From: Bacilli bacterium
Lineage (GTDB): Bacteria; Bacillota_I; Bacilli_A; RF39; UBA660
Length of the DNA: 64,000 nt
Direction: 5' to 3'
Assembly (NCBI GenBank): GCA_017542065.1
Contig: JAFXXX010000007.1
Location: 2,182-66,181, forward strand
The translations under genes and the position numbers were made by a program. The notes beneath the pieces are model-generated. The model saw only the letters and a program-made list of their open reading frames with translations, had not been told where the DNA came from and did no database searches. This document shows positions 13,751 to 18,573 of the stretch, piece by piece (the stretch's first letter is position 1; the number at the start of each line of letters is the position of its first letter).

Positions 13751-13758
13751 GAAATATG

Positions 13759-13788
13759 TTGACATATAAAAAAATCTTATGTTATAAT
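13759..13788 (+). promoter_or_regulatory. Near-consensus sigma-A promoter for tRNA-Ala
   Basis: TTGACA (13759-64), 18-nt spacer, TATAAT (13783-88). Confidence 0.55.
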
Positions 13789-13807
13789 TTACTTGCTTGT
13801 TTGAAAT

Positions 13808-13883
13808 GGGCCCTTAGCTCAGCTGGTAGAGCATCTCGCTTGCACCGAGAAGGTCAGGAGTTCGAACCCCCTAGGGTCCACCA
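13808..13883 (+). tRNA. tRNA-Ala(TGC)
   Basis: The acceptor gggccct/agggtcc carries the G3:U70 Ala identity pair. Anticodon loop is cuUGCac. CCA is encoded. Confidence 0.85.
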
Positions 13884-13894
13884 TTTGAAATGTA

Positions 13895-13917
13895 AAGAAC
13901 CGTATGGTTCTTTTTTT
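13895..13917 (+). terminator. Terminator after tRNA-Ala
   Basis: aagaacc-gtat-ggttctt hairpin followed by TTTTT. Confidence 0.7.
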
Positions 13918-13957
13918 ATTTTCTATATACATGTTATAATTATATTAGGTGATAGTA

Positions 13958-14434
13958 ATGAACGAATTTATGGATGTTGCAATTGATTTATCAGATGATA
14001 ATTTTGATAAGAACTATGGAGGCCCTTTTGGATCTTGTGTAGTTAAAGATGGAAAGATAATTGGGAAGGGTATTAATAGAGTTATTAAAGATAATGATCC
14101 GACTGCTCATGCAGAAGTAATAGCTATTAGGAATGCATGTAAAACTCTTGGAACACATGATTTAACTGGATGTGAAATATATACATCATGTTATCCTTGT
14201 CCTATGTGTTTATCTGCCATAATATGGGCTAATATTAAAAAAGTATATTATGCTAATACTAAAGAAGATGCAGCTGATATAGGTTTTAGAGATGACTTTA
14301 TATATGATTATTTAGAAAAGTTAACTAATAATATTCAAGATAAATCTGTTTTAAATTTAAAATCTATGAATAGAGAAGATGCTTTAGAAGTCTTTAAAAG
14401 ATATGAAGAAGATAAAGATAAAATAGTTTACTAA
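13958..14434 (+). CDS. CMP/dCMP-type zinc deaminase, guanine deaminase (GuaD)-like. The ORF track has a GTG at 13949.
   Basis: HAE...PCxxC zinc-binding motifs (HAEVIAIRNAC, CYPCPMC). ATG at 13958 follows AGGTGA. Confidence 0.75.
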   Translation: MNEFMDVAIDLSDDNFDKNYGGPFGSCVVKDGKIIGKGINRVIKDNDPTAHAEVIAIRNACKTLGTHDLTGCEIYTSCYPCPMCLSAIIWANIKKVYYANTKEDAADIGFRDDFIYDYLEKLTNNIQDKSVLNLKSMNREDALEVFKRYEEDKDKIVY

Positions 14435-14473: not shown

Positions 14474-14794
14474 ATGCAATATTGGATGCAATATTTAGTT
14501 ATAGGTTTTATACTTATATTTATATTATTAATAGTTTTAAAAGCTACTAAAAAAGATTTCCATGTAGAAGCTAATAAATTAGTAGATTATCTAGGTGGTA
14601 AAGATAATATTATTAGTATGGAAGTTAATATGTCTAGATTTAAAGTAACACTTAGAGATGTTTCTATAGTAAATAAAGAAGGCATACAAAAGATGGGTGC
14701 TAAAGGAATAGTAGAAATTGATAATCAATTAAAAATAATTCTTGGACCTAATGCTAAACAACTAGAAAAATATATAGATGATTTAAAAAAATAA
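14474..14794 (+). CDS. Membrane-anchored PTS EIIB(Glc)-like domain protein. The catalytic Cys is replaced by Asn.
   Basis: One N-terminal TM helix. The following domain aligns with EIIB-Glc (LVxxLGGKDNI....C-I-T-R-L-R-V..DVS), but the corresponding position here reads N-M-S-R-F-K-V. Confidence 0.55.
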   Translation: MQYWMQYLVIGFILIFILLIVLKATKKDFHVEANKLVDYLGGKDNIISMEVNMSRFKVTLRDVSIVNKEGIQKMGAKGIVEIDNQLKIILGPNAKQLEKYIDDLKK

Positions 14795-14822
14795 AAATAC
14801 ATCAAATGATGTATTTTTTATT
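14795..14822. terminator. Bidirectional terminator
   Basis: atacatc-aaat-gatgtat hairpin flanked by A-runs and T-runs. It lies between convergent genes. Confidence 0.6.
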
Positions 14823-15168
14823 TTATTATTTTTTCTAGTATTACATATACTAAACTAAAACTATATGAGAATCCATTTAATAATAATGATAACTTATATG
14901 GACCTATAATACTTTTATTTAGTTTCTTAAAGTATGTTCCTTCGATTAATACTATAAATACTTCTAGAATAGGTACTATTCCGTAAAATACAATAGTATT
15001 ATTCATATAATTATATAATATACTAACAATTATATTTAGAGGAACATTAGTTAATATATTTATTAAAGTAATCTTTAATAAATCTTTACCTCTAATACCT
15101 AATACTAAAGAAATAATTAATTCAATTAATAAAGTTAATAATAAACTTTCTAATATACTATTTAGCAT
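14818..15168 (-). CDS. Hypothetical polytopic membrane protein, 116 aa
   Basis: Three or four hydrophobic helices. Its ATG overlaps the end of small peptide P1 and it has no Shine-Dalgarno site of its own, which suggests translational coupling. Confidence 0.55.
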   Translation of the reverse strand: MLNSILESLLLTLLIELIISLVLGIRGKDLLKITLINILTNVPLNIIVSILYNYMNNTIVFYGIVPILEVFIVLIEGTYFKKLNKSIIGPYKLSLLLNGFSYSFSLVYVILEKIIK

Positions 15169-15283
15169 GTTTCATTTTTATAATTAGAGTTACTAATACT
15201 CCTACAACTAATACTATAGCAACAGATATAATTATTGCTGGTACTACTGGAGTAGTAGATGGTCTTGCGATATCTAAAAACAT
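15158..15283 (-). CDS. Small hydrophobic peptide P1, 41 aa: MFLDIARPSTTPVVPAIIISVAIVLVVGVLVTLIIKMKHAK. Not in the ORF track.
   Basis: A minus-strand ATG is preceded by AGGAGGATAAAT. It has a single predicted TM helix and a basic C-terminus. It is paralogous to P3. Confidence 0.5.
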   Translation of the reverse strand: MFLDIARPSTTPVVPAIIISVAIVLVVGVLVTLIIKMKHAK

Positions 15284-15285
15284 AT

Positions 15286-15381
15286 TTATCCTCCTATTTC
15301 TATTAATAATAATAATAATGTAATTAAAACTGGAATTACTATAACTATTACTACAGCTGTAATTACAATAACTAAAATCAT
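15286..15381 (-). CDS. Small hydrophobic peptide P2, 31 aa: MILVIVITAVVIVIVIPVLITLLLLLIEIGG. Not in the ORF track.
   Basis: A minus-strand ATG is preceded by AGGAGAATAAAT. Its TAA stop lies within the Shine-Dalgarno and start region of P1. Confidence 0.45.
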   Translation of the reverse strand: MILVIVITAVVIVIVIPVLITLLLLLIEIGG

Positions 15382-15391
15382 ATTTATTCTC

Positions 15392-15556
15392 CTATTTTTT
15401 CATATTTTTTCTTATTAATAATGTAACTAAAACTGCAATTACTAAAACTAATACTACAGATGTAATTATAATAATTAAAGTTTTAGGATCCCCGTCATTA
15501 ACAGTAGGTGTAGTTCTTGGAAAATCTGGATCTACAACGTCTAAAAATCTAAACAT
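15392..15556 (-). CDS. Small hydrophobic peptide P3, 54 aa: MFRFLDVVDPDFPRTTPTVNDGDPKTLIIIITSVVLVLVIAVLVTLLIRKNMKK. Not in the ORF track.
   Basis: A minus-strand ATG is preceded by AAGGAGG with a 5-nt spacer. That Shine-Dalgarno site overlaps the TAA stop of the upstream MFS gene. The P3 stop TAG overlaps the Shine-Dalgarno site of P2. Confidence 0.5.
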   Translation of the reverse strand: MFRFLDVVDPDFPRTTPTVNDGDPKTLIIIITSVVLVLVIAVLVTLLIRKNMKK

Positions 15557-15566
15557 AAATACCTCC

Positions 15567-16583
15567 TTATTTTTCTATCTTTACTAATATTATTGTACAA
15601 AGAATTGTTAAAATAGTAAATACTATACCATTTATGAGTAGTGAATCAATTGTAAATAAGAATGCTGGTAAGGCTCCTACAAATAAACCTATAGTAGTTA
15701 ATCCGAATGCTATACCAGGACTCTTTTTAAGTCTTGATACTAATAATGCTAAAGTAACAGGCATAGTCATACTAAATAACATTATTCCAATTAATGATAG
15801 GTACATATTATGGTTACCAAATAGTAGAAAAGGTAATGCCAATACAGTACTAACTATTGATGCAATCTTTATATTTGTTTTATCTATTAAAAGACCTCCT
15901 AAAGCTTTACCAATACCCATAAAACAAAATAATAATATTGATTGTAATACGGTTTTATTCCATCCAGTAGGAATACCATAACTAGAATATGATCTAACTG
16001 CTACTACAAATACAGCTAATATAATTAATAGAGTAGTATTAACTTTAGTATTATCATATGAATATTCTTCAAGTTTATAGTCTTCATCTTTTCTAAATCT
16101 ATATGCTATTACTGTAATTAATAAAGCAATTACATTAACAAGCATTATTAGTAATACACTTACATTGTTTTGATATAGAAGTCTACCTGTTATTATTCCA
16201 AAGGCTCCTCCTGCAACAAATAAACTACTTGGAAACATTTTGCCTTTAGAAGTTCTAAGTGTACTTTCTGCTCCTTCTACATGCACTAATGCATTACCAA
16301 TAGTAAGTAAAGTAAATATAACATATACTGGTAAATTAAACTTTAAACTAATAAGAGCAAATAAAGTTAAAACAAGTCCAATAGCACCAATATTAACTTT
16401 TCTATACTTATCACTAAATGCTCCAATTAAACCTTGTGGAACAAATGCAAATAAATCATACATTAATGCAATTACAGGAAACATATTACTACTTGTATAA
16501 GCTGCTAATGTATAAAAGCATGTTACTTCTAATATAAAGTGAACTAAACAAAATAATATTCCTATTAAATATCCTTTTTTCAT
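15567..16583 (-). CDS. MFS transporter, 12 TM. The start is taken at MKKGYLIG, with AGAGG 7 nt upstream.
   Basis: Hydrophobicity pattern of a 12-helix MFS. GxLaDrxGrkxxl-like motif FSDKYRKV between TM2 and TM3. Confidence 0.75.
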   Translation of the reverse strand: MKKGYLIGILFCLVHFILEVTCFYTLAAYTSSNMFPVIALMYDLFAFVPQGLIGAFSDKYRKVNIGAIGLVLTLFALISLKFNLPVYVIFTLLTIGNALVHVEGAESTLRTSKGKMFPSSLFVAGGAFGIITGRLLYQNNVSVLLIMLVNVIALLITVIAYRFRKDEDYKLEEYSYDNTKVNTTLLIILAVFVVAVRSYSSYGIPTGWNKTVLQSILLFCFMGIGKALGGLLIDKTNIKIASIVSTVLALPFLLFGNHNMYLSLIGIMLFSMTMPVTLALLVSRLKKSPGIAFGLTTIGLFVGALPAFLFTIDSLLINGIVFTILTILCTIILVKIEK

Positions 16584-16620
16584 ATTATTACCTCTAATAT
16601 AATTATAACAAAAAAATACA

Positions 16621-17478
16621 TCATTTAGATGTATTTTTAATTTTGTATACATTTATAGATGGAATACTATTTAATCTAAATTTAAAAGTATCAGAGCCAA
16701 ATCCATTACTTATATATAGATTAGTATCATTAGTCTTATAATGACCTTTATAATACATTTTAGAACCCTTTTTAAGTAGTAATCTATCTATTCCATGAAT
16801 ATTTATTTGATTATATAATGAATGACCTGCAAATACATAATTATAGTTTAAATGATCTATCTTATCCATAGTATCTGGAGTATGCATTATATTAATCTTA
16901 AATCCATCATAATGAATATCATCTAAGAAAGTTAATCTAGAATTATATTTAATACCACTAATTAATATAGAATCCGCATCTTCATTATATAGTATTTTAT
17001 AATCATCGTTTAATGATACAAATCCAGCATTAGCCATTAAAGTATCATAACTTTCAAACTTAGTATCATTATCACCACTAACATAGTATTTACCATACTT
17101 AGCTTTTATCTTAGATAATTCTTCTTCTAATTCATTAATAGCTTTCTCATCTAAAGAAGTTTCTTCATATACAAGGTCTCCTGTATATATAACTATATCT
17201 CCTTTTTTATCATTAATAGTATTAACAATCTTTTTTACAGATTCTATATCAGTAGTACTACCATATAGTATATCAGTAAAATGAACTATCTTTAATGTTC
17301 CAAAAGATTTATTAAGATTATTATCTTCAATATTTATTTCATTTACTAACATAAAACTAGGTTCTATAAATCTACCATAAACAATAATAAATGAAATAAT
17401 TACTATAAGTATGAATATAAATATTCTAAGCTTATGACTTTTTTTCTCTTCTAATTCTTCTTCTATTCTTTTTTTCAT
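16621..17478 (-). CDS. Membrane-anchored metallophosphoesterase (calcineurin-like, YkuE-type)
   Basis: N-terminal TM helix. Motifs FTDILYG...GDLV...GDND...GHSL/H. Confidence 0.75.
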   Translation of the reverse strand: MKKRIEEELEEKKSHKLRIFIFILIVIISFIIVYGRFIEPSFMLVNEINIEDNNLNKSFGTLKIVHFTDILYGSTTDIESVKKIVNTINDKKGDIVIYTGDLVYEETSLDEKAINELEEELSKIKAKYGKYYVSGDNDTKFESYDTLMANAGFVSLNDDYKILYNEDADSILISGIKYNSRLTFLDDIHYDGFKINIMHTPDTMDKIDHLNYNYVFAGHSLYNQINIHGIDRLLLKKGSKMYYKGHYKTNDTNLYISNGFGSDTFKFRLNSIPSINVYKIKNTSK

Positions 17479-17479
17479 A

Positions 17480-18178
17480 TTAACCCCTCATTACTAATTG
17501 TAATATAAGTAATATAGTATTATGCATTAAATGAAATTGTATTGTAGCAAATATATTGTCTGTTTTAATATATATATAACCAAATGATAATCCTACTACC
17601 ATATATGGTATACCCATTAAAATATCATGAAATGATGCATCTAAAGTTACTACATGTACTAACCCAAATATAATTGCACTAATTAAAATATATGCTATTT
17701 TAACTATTTTATCATTACCCATAATTATTTTTCTTATACATTTTCTAAATAAAATTTCCTCTACAAAAGGTGCATATAAAATAGTAGATATAGTCATATA
17801 AACAGGTAATCTTTTAATTAACTCTCTAACTAATTCTTCATTTGCACTAGTACTCATATTAGTTATTTTAGATAATACTACATTAAGTACTCCCATAACT
17901 AATACAGAACCAATAAATAATCCTACATATTTAAAGAACCATTTTCCTTTATTATTAATAAACTCTTTAAACTCTTTTATTAATTCATTTTTATATATTA
18001 AAAATAATACTCCCATGAATAATAGATCTACTACTATTAAAACTATATTTAATGGTATAGGACTTAAATTATCAATATCTATATTACATAAGTTAAGTAT
18101 TTCACTAATTAATGGACTAAATAAAAAATATAATAGGAATGCTAAAAGTGCTATAAATATATCTTTATATTTTTTCAT
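17480..18178 (-). CDS. CPBP-family intramembrane glutamic endopeptidase (CAAX protease/Abi)
   Basis: The motifs EEILFRK and FGLVH, plus a later H, form the CPBP signature. The protein is polytopic. Confidence 0.8.
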   Translation of the reverse strand: MKKYKDIFIALLAFLLYFLFSPLISEILNLCNIDIDNLSPIPLNIVLIVVDLLFMGVLFLIYKNELIKEFKEFINNKGKWFFKYVGLFIGSVLVMGVLNVVLSKITNMSTSANEELVRELIKRLPVYMTISTILYAPFVEEILFRKCIRKIIMGNDKIVKIAYILISAIIFGLVHVVTLDASFHDILMGIPYMVVGLSFGYIYIKTDNIFATIQFHLMHNTILLILQLVMRG

Positions 18179-18237
18179 AAGTACCTACTTTCATATCTAA
18201 TTATATCATTTTTCCTTATATTATTAAACAAAAAGTG

Positions 18238-18266
18238 TTTACATTATGTATATTCTTTGCTATAAT
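18238..18266 (+). promoter_or_regulatory. Promoter of the rimP-nusA-infB operon
   Basis: TTTACA, 17-nt spacer, TATAAT. A leader hairpin (agagtgagg-tgat-cctcactct) lies at 18285-18306. Confidence 0.5.
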
Positions 18267-18327
18267 CATTTGTAACAACGAAGAAGAGTGAGGTGATCCT
18301 CACTCTTTAATATTGTATGGAGGAAAT

Positions 18328-18573
18328 ATGCTAGAAAAGGTTAAAAGTCTAATTGAAGAACCATTATCAAAAGAAAACATTGAAGTAGTTAGTGTTACTT
18401 TTGAAGATATTGATGGAGCAAAAAATTTAGTTATAGTAATTGATACTAAACCATATGTTGATTTAAATACTTGTGTTAAGGCAACTCATATTATTAATCC
18501 TATTCTTGATGAAGCGGATTTAATTGAAGAAAGTTACATACTTAATGTATGTTCGAAGGGAGAAGATGAATAA
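18328..18573 (+). CDS. rimP: Ribosome maturation factor RimP, N-terminal domain only (about 81 aa). The ORF track begins at TTG 18313.
   Basis: N-domain similarity (EPLSKENIEVVSVTFEDIDGAKNLVIVIDTKPYVDLNTCVKATHIINPILD). The stop overlaps the nusA ATG (TAATG). Confidence 0.7.
   Translation: MLEKVKSLIEEPLSKENIEVVSVTFEDIDGAKNLVIVIDTKPYVDLNTCVKATHIINPILDEADLIEESYILNVCSKGEDE

Follow-up and report, generated by a model that had tools for sequence, protein, structure and literature searches.

Gene organization of the locus

On the minus strand of the window, by which we mean the whole stretch of 64,000 nucleotides that was analysed, seven ORFs encode a CPBP protease, a metallophosphoesterase, an MFS-fold transporter, three very small proteins (P3, P2 and P1) and a membrane protein, M116 (Table 1). 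Translation of the ORFs of the window placed all seven exactly where the initial annotation had put them, and the Shine-Dalgarno sites and nested stop and start signals that it described were likewise found exactly in the sequence. The small ORFs had already been called, without names, by the gene callers of public assemblies. In the case of the MFS gene, a longer ORF of 361 aa that overlaps the phosphoesterase gene is also open; the start giving 338 aa is used here, and the Shine-Dalgarno site of the gene is AGAGG. Those of the small ORFs read AAGGAGGtatttATG, AGGAGAataaatATG and AGGAGGataaatATG. The translation signals interlock: the stop codon TAA of the MFS gene lies within the Shine-Dalgarno site of P3, the stop codon TAG of P3 lies within that of P2, and the stop codon TAA of P2 lies in the spacer of the P1 Shine-Dalgarno site. 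The 3' end of P1 overlaps the start of M116 by 11 nt, and M116, which lacks a Shine-Dalgarno site of its own, is probably translationally coupled to P1.

Table 1. Genes and signals of the locus, with their positions in the window.
Feature	Position	Strand	Basis
Promoter-like site before the CPBP gene (TTAATA, 16 nt, TG-TATAAT)	18200..18227	-	Consensus match only
CPBP (Rce1-like) intramembrane glutamic protease, 232 aa	17480..18178	-	Pfam PF02517
Membrane-anchored metallophosphoesterase (YaeI/LpxG-like), 285 aa	16621..17478	-	Sub-cut-off NCBIfam matches
Hairpin and U7 across the phosphoesterase stop codon	16614..16636	-	Fold energy, z-score
Compact 12-TM MFS-fold transporter, 338 aa, start MKKGYL	15567..16583	-	Predicted fold
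P3, 54 aa, predicted single-pass	15392..15556	-	Motif, TM helix and tail
P2, 31 aa, probable remnant of a P3-type gene	15286..15381	-	DNA alignments
P1, 41 aa, single-pass	15158..15283	-	Motif, TM helix and tail
M116, 116 aa, 4-TM protein, new family	14818..15168	-	Homologue alignment, AF2
Terminator hairpin and U-run after the M116 stop codon	14795..14816	-	Fold energy, z-score

The promoter-like site matches the consensus at 10 of 12 positions and has an extended -10 TG. A hairpin with an 11-bp stem (AAAAAUACAUC/GAUGUAUUUUU) followed by U7 lies at the stop codon of the phosphoesterase gene (-10.2 kcal/mol, z-score -3.7), and a hairpin with the identical 11-bp stem, also followed by a U-run, lies after the stop codon of M116 (-10.2 kcal/mol, z-score -4.3). 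The stem has only these two copies in the window, where none is expected by chance, and the hairpins are conserved in close relatives. The first of them, which spans the phosphoesterase stop codon just before the MFS gene, may act as a terminator or attenuator, and it is doubtful that the seven genes form one operon. The terminator after M116 is shared with a convergent PTS EIIB gene.

The CPBP protein matches Pfam PF02517 (Rce1-like) with an E-value of 7e-18 and 65 bits, against a gathering cut-off of 22.4, and the motifs EExxxR, FxxxH and HxxxN are present in its translation as EEILFR, FGLVH and HLMHN, in agreement with the identity first given to it. The phosphoesterase matches the NCBIfam models LpxG (2e-22) and YaeI (5e-13), both under their curated cut-offs, and its orthologue in locus L001 (99% MFS identity) matches Pfam Metallophos. 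Of 80 loci, only 2 have a CPBP gene next to the MFS gene. In 3 of the 80 a relative of the phosphoesterase is present within the locus: those in L001 and L002 immediately precede the MFS gene and share its strand, whereas the third, a weak match in L044, is encoded on the opposite strand about 3.5 kb downstream. These two genes are lineage-specific neighbours, outside the conserved set described below.

A divergent MFS protein and a new four-helix membrane protein

Although Pfam is silent on the 338-aa protein, with zero matches including to the MFS_1 profile, its predicted fold bears out the initial identification as an MFS transporter. The AF2 model (pLDDT 92, pTM 0.90) has helices consistent with 12 TM segments in two halves, and a Foldseek search of the PDB returned 236 matches at E<=1e-3, of which the best 50 are all MFS-fold transporters (query-normalised TM-score 0.55-0.74, with many at about 0.7), the bacterial SLC16 homologue 6g9x being among the best. 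Motif A of the MFS, in the interval between TM2 and TM3, has the consensus G-x-x-x-D-(R/K)-x-G-R-(R/K). Residues 54-66, GAFSDKYRKVNIG, include GAFSDKYRK and, judged by inspection, match it approximately; G54 and D58 are invariant in an alignment of 21 relatives. Just 4 of these 21 relatives reach MFS_1, with a best E-value of 3.5e-6. With 862 homologues found, the protein represents a very divergent MFS subfamily, assigned through its modelled fold.

M116 is a new family of four-helix membrane proteins, with 2,811 representatives at 50% identity. Neither Pfam nor NCBIfam gave a match at E<=1, and the structure search with its AF2 model (pLDDT 88) gave no specific or informative fold match. The invariant residues are T12, E16, T40-N41, E69, E76, N98 and S101, and the homologue alignment contains no conserved Cys, His or Arg. 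By the positive-inside rule, M116 is predicted to have both its N-terminus and its C-terminus outside. Fusions of three kinds occur: some members have a motif-like extension at the N-terminus, some carry an additional TM helix with a basic tail and, rarely, M116 is joined to a PBP_like_2 domain. All three are compatible with such a topology and with a role in transport. Two known classes of 4-TM protein were considered and rejected: M116 does not show the sequence or profile similarity, with a TM1 glutamate in an SMR context, that would make it an SMR/EmrE-type transporter, and it has no homology to the TRAP and TTT small subunits DctQ and TctB (Pfam and NCBIfam, E<=1), the architecture being analogous only.

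The conserved gene set

About 130 related loci were compared, and co-occurrence was counted in 80 genome loci. In the conserved unit, the MFS and M116 genes are accompanied by one to four genes for small single-pass proteins. M116 co-occurs with the MFS gene in 65 of the 80 genome loci, and the pairing was also found when starting from M116. Starting instead from a family of SH3b partner proteins (see below), both genes were present in 16 of the 18 metagenome loci with enough flank, and the other two have no MFS and M116 genes nearby. The initial annotation had called for a check on whether the arrangement of small peptides and MFS gene is conserved, and this is the case: a small single-TM ORF is present at -45 to +90 nt of the MFS stop codon in 67 of 76 loci, versus 25 of 461 control gene ends. 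The small ORFs keep their frames in loci whose MFS identity ranges from 99% to about 45%, and conservation of the set extends over different classes and to MAGs that carry the label Saccharibacteria. It is a widespread and undescribed gene set of gut bacteria.

P1 and P3, minimal members of a class of putative partner proteins

The N-termini of P1 and P3 begin MF(R)FLD. In P3 the motif reads L-D-V-V-D-P and the tail RKNMKK, with a TM helix between them; in P1 the corresponding sequences are L-D-I-A-R-P and KMKHAK, again with a TM helix between; by the positive-inside rule, the N-terminus would be outside and the Lys/Arg tail inside. The two had been described as clear paralogs. Their shared motif and family context argue for paralogy, whereas a pairwise BLASTP comparison (43% identity, E-value 1.1) is not significant by itself. 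P3 orthologues were found in loci L001, L086 and L002. The dN/dS values are 0.13-0.65 for P3 and 0.30-0.91 for P1; among the small ORFs they reach 0.9 in the closest pair and are 0.13-0.45 in more diverged pairs. The frames are maintained with dN/dS below 1, and close relatives have two to four copies. P1 and P3 are genuine, conserved small genes, and the statement that no described family matches the small peptides holds.

P2, on the other hand, had been counted as an independent third peptide, and this view had to be given up: DNA alignments show that it arose by a recent duplication of that stretch of a P3-type gene which codes for the TM helix, and that the copy is truncated at its 5' end and frameshifted at its 3' end. 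Both the outer motif and the basic tail are missing. L001 and L086 (91% MFS identity) do not have P2, whereas L081-L085 do, and it is probably a remnant. Two of the three tiny genes are real.

P1 and P3 belong, as its smallest members, to a conserved class of partner proteins. What defines the class is a C-terminal TM helix with a basic tail and, on the predicted outer face, the motif (A/L)-D-hydrophobic-x-x-P, placed at the N-terminus or close to it. Motif and anchor occur together in 69 of 706 ORFs of the MFS-adjoining region versus 2 of 2,869 elsewhere, and both of the latter abut an MFS gene; among the 262 ORFs of the window, only P1 and P3 have both. Their relatives include anchored surface proteins of 250-720 aa bearing the same signature. 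The larger members have outer domains of the SH3b or cadherin-like type and a signal peptide whose end coincides exactly with the motif. In 29 signal-peptide members the motif begins at a canonical V/A-x-A cleavage site, and Asp is therefore the predicted mature N-terminus. Members lacking a signal peptide have outer N-terminal regions of at least 100 aa. In the minimal members the motif is only 8-20 residues from the TM helix and must therefore act at the membrane surface. The A, D and P of the motif are invariant in the SH3b partner family, the alignment of which shows no consensus directly before the C-terminal TM helix. In many loci a different small protein directly follows the MFS gene; it has no D-x-x-x-P but has K-E-(I/L)-K after the TM helix. 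After the MFS gene, position is more conserved than the sequence of the small protein.

Discussion

Based on the gene linkage, we hold with moderate confidence that the MFS protein and M116 form a membrane complex with P1 and P3 as its accessory or partner proteins, which would modulate transport or tether outer domains. The MFS protein and M116, with its buried Glu, Asn, Thr and Ser residues, would form the membrane core, on which the partners would pack via their own TM helix. Their basic juxtamembrane tail may face, and pair with, an acidic cluster of M116 glutamates at the inner leaflet, and their N-terminal D-x-x-x-P hook would dock on the outer membrane surface. The partners could thereby tune an MFS-type transport activity, or they could tether outer domains to the core, of which P1 and P3 have none and which elsewhere are SH3b, cadherin-like or solute-binding. 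The nested stop and start signals would couple translation from the MFS gene through P3, (P2) and P1 to M116, with P2 a decayed partial duplicate and the CPBP and phosphoesterase genes unrelated neighbours. Of the three options originally put forward for the peptides, small transporter subunits fits best, and the other two, bacteriocin-like peptides and type-I toxins, are not supported (see below). Several observations speak against this reading. The variable copy number and the fast change outside motif and TM helix would be unusual for stoichiometric subunits, and fit "clients" of a machine equally well. The K-E-(I/L)-K proteins that follow the MFS gene in many loci, the non-significant BLASTP comparison of P1 with P3, the two partner-family loci without MFS and M116 genes and the uninformative structure search with M116 also weigh on this side.

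Several known systems offer parallels. In eukaryotes, the MFS transporter MCT1 has the single-pass ancillary subunit basigin or embigin. MFSD1 and GLMP are likewise a eukaryotic MFS transporter and its single-pass ancillary subunit (PMC11252000). As in these systems, an MFS-fold transporter is paired, here by gene linkage, with a single-pass protein of varying outer domain; the partners here, however, have no sequence relation to those of MCT1 and MFSD1, carry an N-terminal D-x-x-x-P and in some cases lack an outer domain, and there is an additional, obligatory 4-TM protein. Proteins of the KdpF type are encoded within the operon of a transporter. Other small proteins that modulate bacterial transporters are AcrZ (acting on AcrB), MgtS, MntS and WatS1 (reviewed in PMC10710835). 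These are single-TM proteins of 30-55 aa, which in known cases bind and tune the transporter, and P1 and P3 resemble them in being single-TM proteins of less than about 60 aa encoded with a transporter, between the MFS and M116 genes. However, the known targets are RND, P-type or other transporters, not an MFS protein with a dedicated 4-TM partner, and none of the modulators has a D-x-x-x-P motif, tandem paralogues or large-domain relatives. The TRAP and TTT systems share with this locus a gene for a small 4-TM protein (DctQ, TctB) beside that of a 12-TM secondary transporter, and they use extracytoplasmic binding proteins, to which the rare M116-PBP_like_2 fusion forms a parallel. Here, by contrast, the large subunit is an MFS protein rather than DctM or TctA, no family resembles M116 in Pfam or profile comparisons, and in place of classical binding proteins the partners are usually bare peptides or TM-anchored proteins of the SH3b or cadherin-like kind.

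A somewhat unlikely alternative to a complex of transporter and partners is a system for sorting, processing or insertion, in which M116, the MFS protein or both would recognise the N-terminal (A/L)-D-x-x-x-P of client proteins and then process, modify, translocate or position them, P1 and P3 being minimal clients of a kind that other sorting signals also have. Each locus has one MFS and one M116 gene per one to five motif-bearing proteins, the core evolves more slowly than these, and their outer domains are very diverse (none, low-complexity spacers, SH3b or cadherin-like). The exact position of the motif at the predicted mature N-terminus of the signal-peptide forms, the need of the long outer regions without signal peptide for some route across the membrane, the two unlinked members of a client family and the three invariant intramembrane glutamates of M116 are all in line with sorting. 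In sortase/LPXTG, exosortase/PEP-CTERM, rhombosortase/GlyGly-CTERM and CPBP-type myxosortase systems, as here, otherwise unrelated surface proteins and mini-proteins have a short conserved signal in common and are encoded next to a protein that crosses the membrane several times; the way in which the partners end, with a TM helix and a basic tail, also resembles such signals. However, the conserved signal is N-terminal here, with none adjoining the C-terminal TM helix, and M116 lacks the catalytic signature of known sortases, exosortases, rhombosortases and CPBP proteases. No known sorting-enzyme family or catalytic residues were seen at the locus, and the NCBIfam sorting-domain models are silent. 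A system of the sortase or exosortase type was rejected on two counts, the missing pre-TM consensus and an M116 whose invariant residues are Thr, Glu, Asn and Ser only. Furthermore, the MFS protein resembles an ordinary transporter with motif A, and in the loci surveyed the clients mostly keep company with the MFS and M116 genes instead of being scattered.

It is very unlikely that the small ORFs encode type-I-toxin-like or selfish toxic membrane peptides, or that they are non-functional, whether arisen by chance or as remnants of a larger gene. The peptides are indeed short and very hydrophobic, P2 is truly decayed, and the highest dN/dS of the closest pair approaches 1. Against this stand the strong Shine-Dalgarno sites, the nested signals that couple the small ORFs to the conserved genes on either side, the conserved outer-face motif beyond the TM helix, the lower dN/dS of the more diverged pairs and the range of MFS identities over which the frames persist. 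A search of positions 14600-18500 against Rfam, which covers known RNA families, gave no match. The decay of one larger gene is excluded, as separate small ORFs are conserved across lineages.

Also very unlikely is a locus for bacteriocin-like or membrane-active peptides, with P1-P3 as exported antimicrobials, the MFS protein as exporter and the CPBP protein for immunity or processing: small, hydrophobic, cationic peptides do lie beside a transporter, and this lineage has a CPBP gene close by, but that gene is rarely linked to the MFS gene and is separated from its block, with the phosphoesterase gene, by the U-run hairpin; P1 and P3 have no double-glycine or Sec leader, and their C-terminal part is a TM helix followed by a Lys/Arg tail of the stop-transfer type; there is no ABC/C39 exporter among the seven ORFs; the same signature is borne by large anchored surface proteins; and the set is conserved from class to class and into Saccharibacteria-labelled MAGs, unlike fast-turnover bacteriocin loci.

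Returning to sorting, an unlikely but far-reaching reading is that the MFS protein and M116 form an unrecognised machine, present in several phyla, that reads an N-terminal Asp-x-x-x-Pro signal in order to process, translocate or position C-terminally anchored surface proteins. The signal would be exposed by signal peptidase or lie a few residues from Met1, and the cargo would comprise SH3b, cadherin-like and low-complexity stalk proteins as well as mini-proteins such as P1 and P3. If true, this machine would constitute a new pathway of protein sorting or tethering in gut Firmicutes and Saccharibacteria.

The conserved gene set

Re-reading of the minus strand bore out the seven closely packed ORFs that the initial annotation had placed at 14818-18178, together with their signals. 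The Shine-Dalgarno sites of the three tiny ORFs P3, P2 and P1 were seen where they had been proposed; the TAA of the MFS gene is part of the P3 site, the TAG of P3 is part of the P2 site, the TAA of P2 falls within the P1 spacer, P1 and the gene for the membrane protein M116 overlap by 11 nt, and the M116 gene has no Shine-Dalgarno site. An Rfam scan of 14600-18500 for riboswitches or small RNAs found none. No EIIC adjoins the plus-strand gene with a PTS EIIB domain that faces M116.

Features of the window: the seven minus-strand ORFs in reading order, followed by hairpins and neighbouring features
Feature	Position	Strand	Basis
CPBP protease, 232 aa	17480-18178	minus	Pfam Rce1-like, 7e-18
Membrane-anchored metallophosphoesterase, 285 aa	16621-17478	minus	NCBIfam LpxG/YaeI-like, under curated cut-offs
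Multi-pass MFS protein, 338 aa	15567-16583	minus	AlphaFold fold match
P3 (54 aa), P2 (31 aa), P1 (41 aa)	between MFS gene and M116	minus	ORF reading
M116, 116 aa, four helices	14818-15168	minus	ORF reading and model
Hairpin, 11-bp stem and U7, spanning the phosphoesterase stop	16614-16636		
Hairpin, second copy of the 11-bp stem, after M116, then a U-run	14795-14816		
106-aa protein convergent with M116, N-terminal TM helix and lone PTS EIIB domain	14474-14794	plus	Pfam, 8.6e-9
tRNA-Ala(UGC) gene, with DUF1292-like and TadA-like deaminase genes on either side	13808-13883	plus	
Spurious ORFs overlapping tRNA-Ala(UGC)	13756-13986		

As a conserved unit, the proposed seven-gene operon did not hold. 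We fetched 80 genome loci containing an MFS relative, whose MAGs carry the labels Bacilli, Erysipelotrichaceae, Ruminococcus, Acutalibacteraceae, other Clostridia and, for six of the loci, Saccharibacteria or Nanosyncoccus, and searched them by tblastn with the window proteins. M116 was a neighbour of the MFS gene in 65 of them, and many of the remaining 15 run on for no more than ~1.3 kb past the end of that gene. The linkage is reciprocal: when M116 relatives were taken as the starting point, an MFS gene together with a small ORF again lay next to them. The CPBP gene was found near the MFS gene in only two of the 80 loci and the phosphoesterase gene in two to three. A neighbour census made in search of a functional link showed the upstream genes to be otherwise heterogeneous, and we therefore rejected the association of these two as lineage-specific; the PrsW and HAD phosphatase genes found upstream in relatives at 71-79% identity were judged incidental. 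Conservation as a unit is limited to the MFS gene, the small gene(s) and M116.

The six Saccharibacteria- or Nanosyncoccus-labelled loci (L029, L030, L047, L048, L064 and L067) lie on contigs that reach 203 kb in length, and their presence suggests inter-phylum transfer or mis-binning. A DUF5684 membrane protein (Pfam) adjoins the MFS-M116 genes at loci L094 (4407-5048) and L096 (2409-2816), and at L033 (7081-7722) the corresponding place is taken by a 213-aa membrane protein that may belong to the same family.

A hairpin with the same stem (AAAAAUACAUC/GAUGUAUUUUU) stands at either end of the MFS-to-M116 block. The two are the sole matches in the 64-kb window, where none is expected by chance, and both are kept in close relatives (L001 and L081-L086). 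Such hairpins may act as paired terminators or mark the ends of a cassette, and the block that they bracket may therefore form its own, separate transcription unit.

The MFS protein and M116

To our knowledge, bacterial MFS transporters are regarded as single-subunit machines. The label "MFS" given in the initial annotation stands by fold, while Pfam gave no verification of it and a PDB sequence-profile search with the family yielded nothing useful. An AlphaFold model from 21 relatives (pLDDT 92) retrieved MFS transporters throughout the top of the list in a PDB structure search (TM-score ~0.7). Since these fold matches are joined by a visible motif-A-like GAFSDKYRK, we conclude that the protein is a compact, very divergent MFS. 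It has 862 detectable homologues, and the dN/dS of its gene is 0.05-0.12.

M116 carries no source annotation, and neither it nor its relatives matched a Pfam or NCBIfam model. The family comprises 2,811 representatives at 50% identity (E<=1e-3), with a dN/dS of ~0.17 and invariant residues in all four helices: T12 and E16 (TM1), T40-N41 (TM2), E69 and E76 (TM3), and N98 and S101 (TM4). M116 is modelled as a bundle of four helices (pLDDT 88), for which structure matches were only generic; homology to EmrE/SMR was considered and rejected, as the protein has no similarity to EmrE. Loops 1 and 3 are rich in K/R, from which we infer that both termini face outward; the polar/acidic cluster would consequently lie mid-membrane and in the inner leaflet. 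The rare M116 fusions fit this N-out/C-out topology: one adds an N-terminal FFADVAVDEP extension, another a fifth TM helix plus the tail NRRKHEKN, and a third a C-terminal PBP_like_2 solute-binding domain (Pfam 1.3e-9).

Variants with the extension or the fifth helix occur at L030 (7250-7699) and in proteins P0401 and P0282; the extension resembles the motif of the partner proteins described below, and the fifth helix with its basic tail resembles their anchor. The PBP_like_2 fusion (L091-L093, 5001-6029; proteins P0382 and P0344) is common in human-microbiome contigs. Its locus has further genes, for an MFS relative (31% identity), for a 90-aa protein in which a signal peptide is combined with ADVIFGP and a TM helix, and for a second, degenerate paralogue of M116.

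Small genes between the MFS gene and M116

In 67 of 76 loci, an ORF encoding one TM helix and a basic tail begins -45 to +90 nt from the MFS stop, as against 25 of 461 other gene ends used as control. Among close relatives of the window, P1/P3-type genes are present in two copies at L001, L086, L087 and L088, in three at L002 and in four at L090, and the copies share the form M-x-x-(F/L)-(L/M/F)-D-(V/I/E)-x-x-P, with linker, TM helix and K/R tail following in that order. Set against the values for the MFS gene and M116, the dN/dS of P3 (0.13-0.65) and P1 (0.30-0.91) shows that the small genes are under constraint yet evolve faster than this core. Pairwise BLASTP of P1/P3 and P2/P3 was uninformative owing to length and composition, and Pfam and NCBIfam scans of the seven ORFs, M116 relatives and large partners gave no match for the P1-P3 peptides. 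Many loci have another small protein directly after the MFS gene, which lacks the motif and conserves K-E-(I/L)-K after the TM helix; it is absent from the window clade and from Ruminococcus-type loci.

P2, which had been counted as a third peptide gene, cannot be ranked with P1 and P3. According to the DNA alignment, P2 duplicates the TM-coding stretch of a P3-type gene; it has lost the N-terminal motif, and in it a 5-nt deletion removes the basic tail and causes read-through of the old stop codon. This partial, frameshifted copy is confined to the window's own strain group, being missing in L001 (99% MFS identity) and L086, and we treat it as a presumed recent remnant.

A signature shared by the proposed partner proteins

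Comparison of the loci widens the P1/P3 motif to (A/L)-D-hydrophobic-x-x-P. We defined the signature as this motif in the first 50 residues plus, after the last TM helix, three or more K/R. Close to the MFS gene, in the region adjoining it, 69 of 706 ORFs carry the signature; elsewhere in the same loci it was found in two of 2,869 ORFs, both abutting the MFS gene. Among the 262 ORFs of the 64-kb window, only P1 and P3 combine both features.

The signature occurs in two forms. Firstly, members without a signal peptide (n = 40) are 41-285 aa long with the Asp at residue 4-16, the longer ones having acidic or Thr/Pro-rich spacers. Secondly, in members with a Sec signal peptide (n = 29) the motif starts exactly at the canonical cleavage site (V/A at -3 in 27, A at -1 in all 29), so that the mature N-terminus is predicted as D-M-G-A-P. 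The latter have 250-720 aa and SH3b repeats, which in relatives at 71-79% identity are replaced by a cadherin-like domain, with DDSGP following the A of the cleavage site; all end in a TM helix and NKKKK. A 92-aa protein at L056 (signal peptide, ADVYVPE, TM helix, NKNKNKK) looks like P3 plus a signal peptide and bridges both forms. An independent metagenome search seeded with a closer subset of the SH3b family recovered MFS and M116 in 16 of the 18 loci with enough upstream sequence.

At L087, L088 and L090 (about 1200-2460), the cadherin-like protein is encoded directly upstream of the MFS gene, preceded by the PrsW protease and HAD phosphatase genes; we count it as a further partner type because its signal peptide ends in HA before DDSGP and its C-terminus has the TM helix and Lys-rich tail. 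Partners at L004, L018, L045, L059 and L078, mostly from Ruminococcus-labelled MAGs, continue beyond the TM helix in long cytoplasmic Pro/Asn/Gln-rich repeat tails, such as YPNQGGYNQNN and PQYPNNGMP.

Discussion

Linkage, gene order and coupled translation argue that P1 and P3 would function together with the MFS protein and M116. In the minimal members the motif lies 8-20 residues from the TM helix, so its target must sit at the outer membrane surface. The reading we favour, to which we give about an even chance, is a hetero-oligomeric transporter in which P1 and P3 would be accessory or tethering partners; a plausible detail is that the partners' basic tails may contact the M116 glutamates. 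The nearest functional analogues, none homologous to the proteins described here, are MCT-basigin and MFSD1-GLMP (PMC11252000), in which an MFS transporter has a single-pass ancillary subunit, the AcrZ-like small-protein modulators of bacteria (PMC10710835), and the small subunits with four TM helices that belong to TRAP and TTT transporters. The literature provided such analogies and no description of the MFS/small-gene/M116 set.

The main rival, which we consider rather unlikely, is a sorting or processing system of which P1 and P3 would be minimal clients: the partners vary in copy number, differ widely in their outer domains and evolve faster, all of which would suit it equally well, but no catalytic signature supports it. 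The conservation pattern and the membrane-anchor architecture speak against two options of the initial annotation, namely a type-I toxin and a bacteriocin with CPBP immunity, the latter being further weakened by the non-conserved CPBP linkage. The conservation pattern also contradicts a decayed larger gene.

We rate the finding as an MFS transporter with dedicated partners, M116 and the motif-bearing proteins lying outside all family models, with a modest chance of a new sorting or tethering pathway. Human-microbiome contigs carry the gene set, as does at least one cultured isolate (Ruminococcaceae bacterium P7), so it is open to experimental testing. The signature, (A/L)-D-hydrophobic-x-x-P with TM helix and basic tail, ties mini-proteins to SH3b and cadherin-like surface proteins. 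A function-testable context would be provided for 116-aa "hypothetical" proteins in ~2,800 clusters, and for many small ORFs that are nameless and family-less in the public records examined here. If the reading is true, the MFS gene of a large gut/rumen clade would always be accompanied by a new 4-TM protein and single-pass signature partners, and a multi-subunit architecture would be added to the best-studied transporter superfamily.
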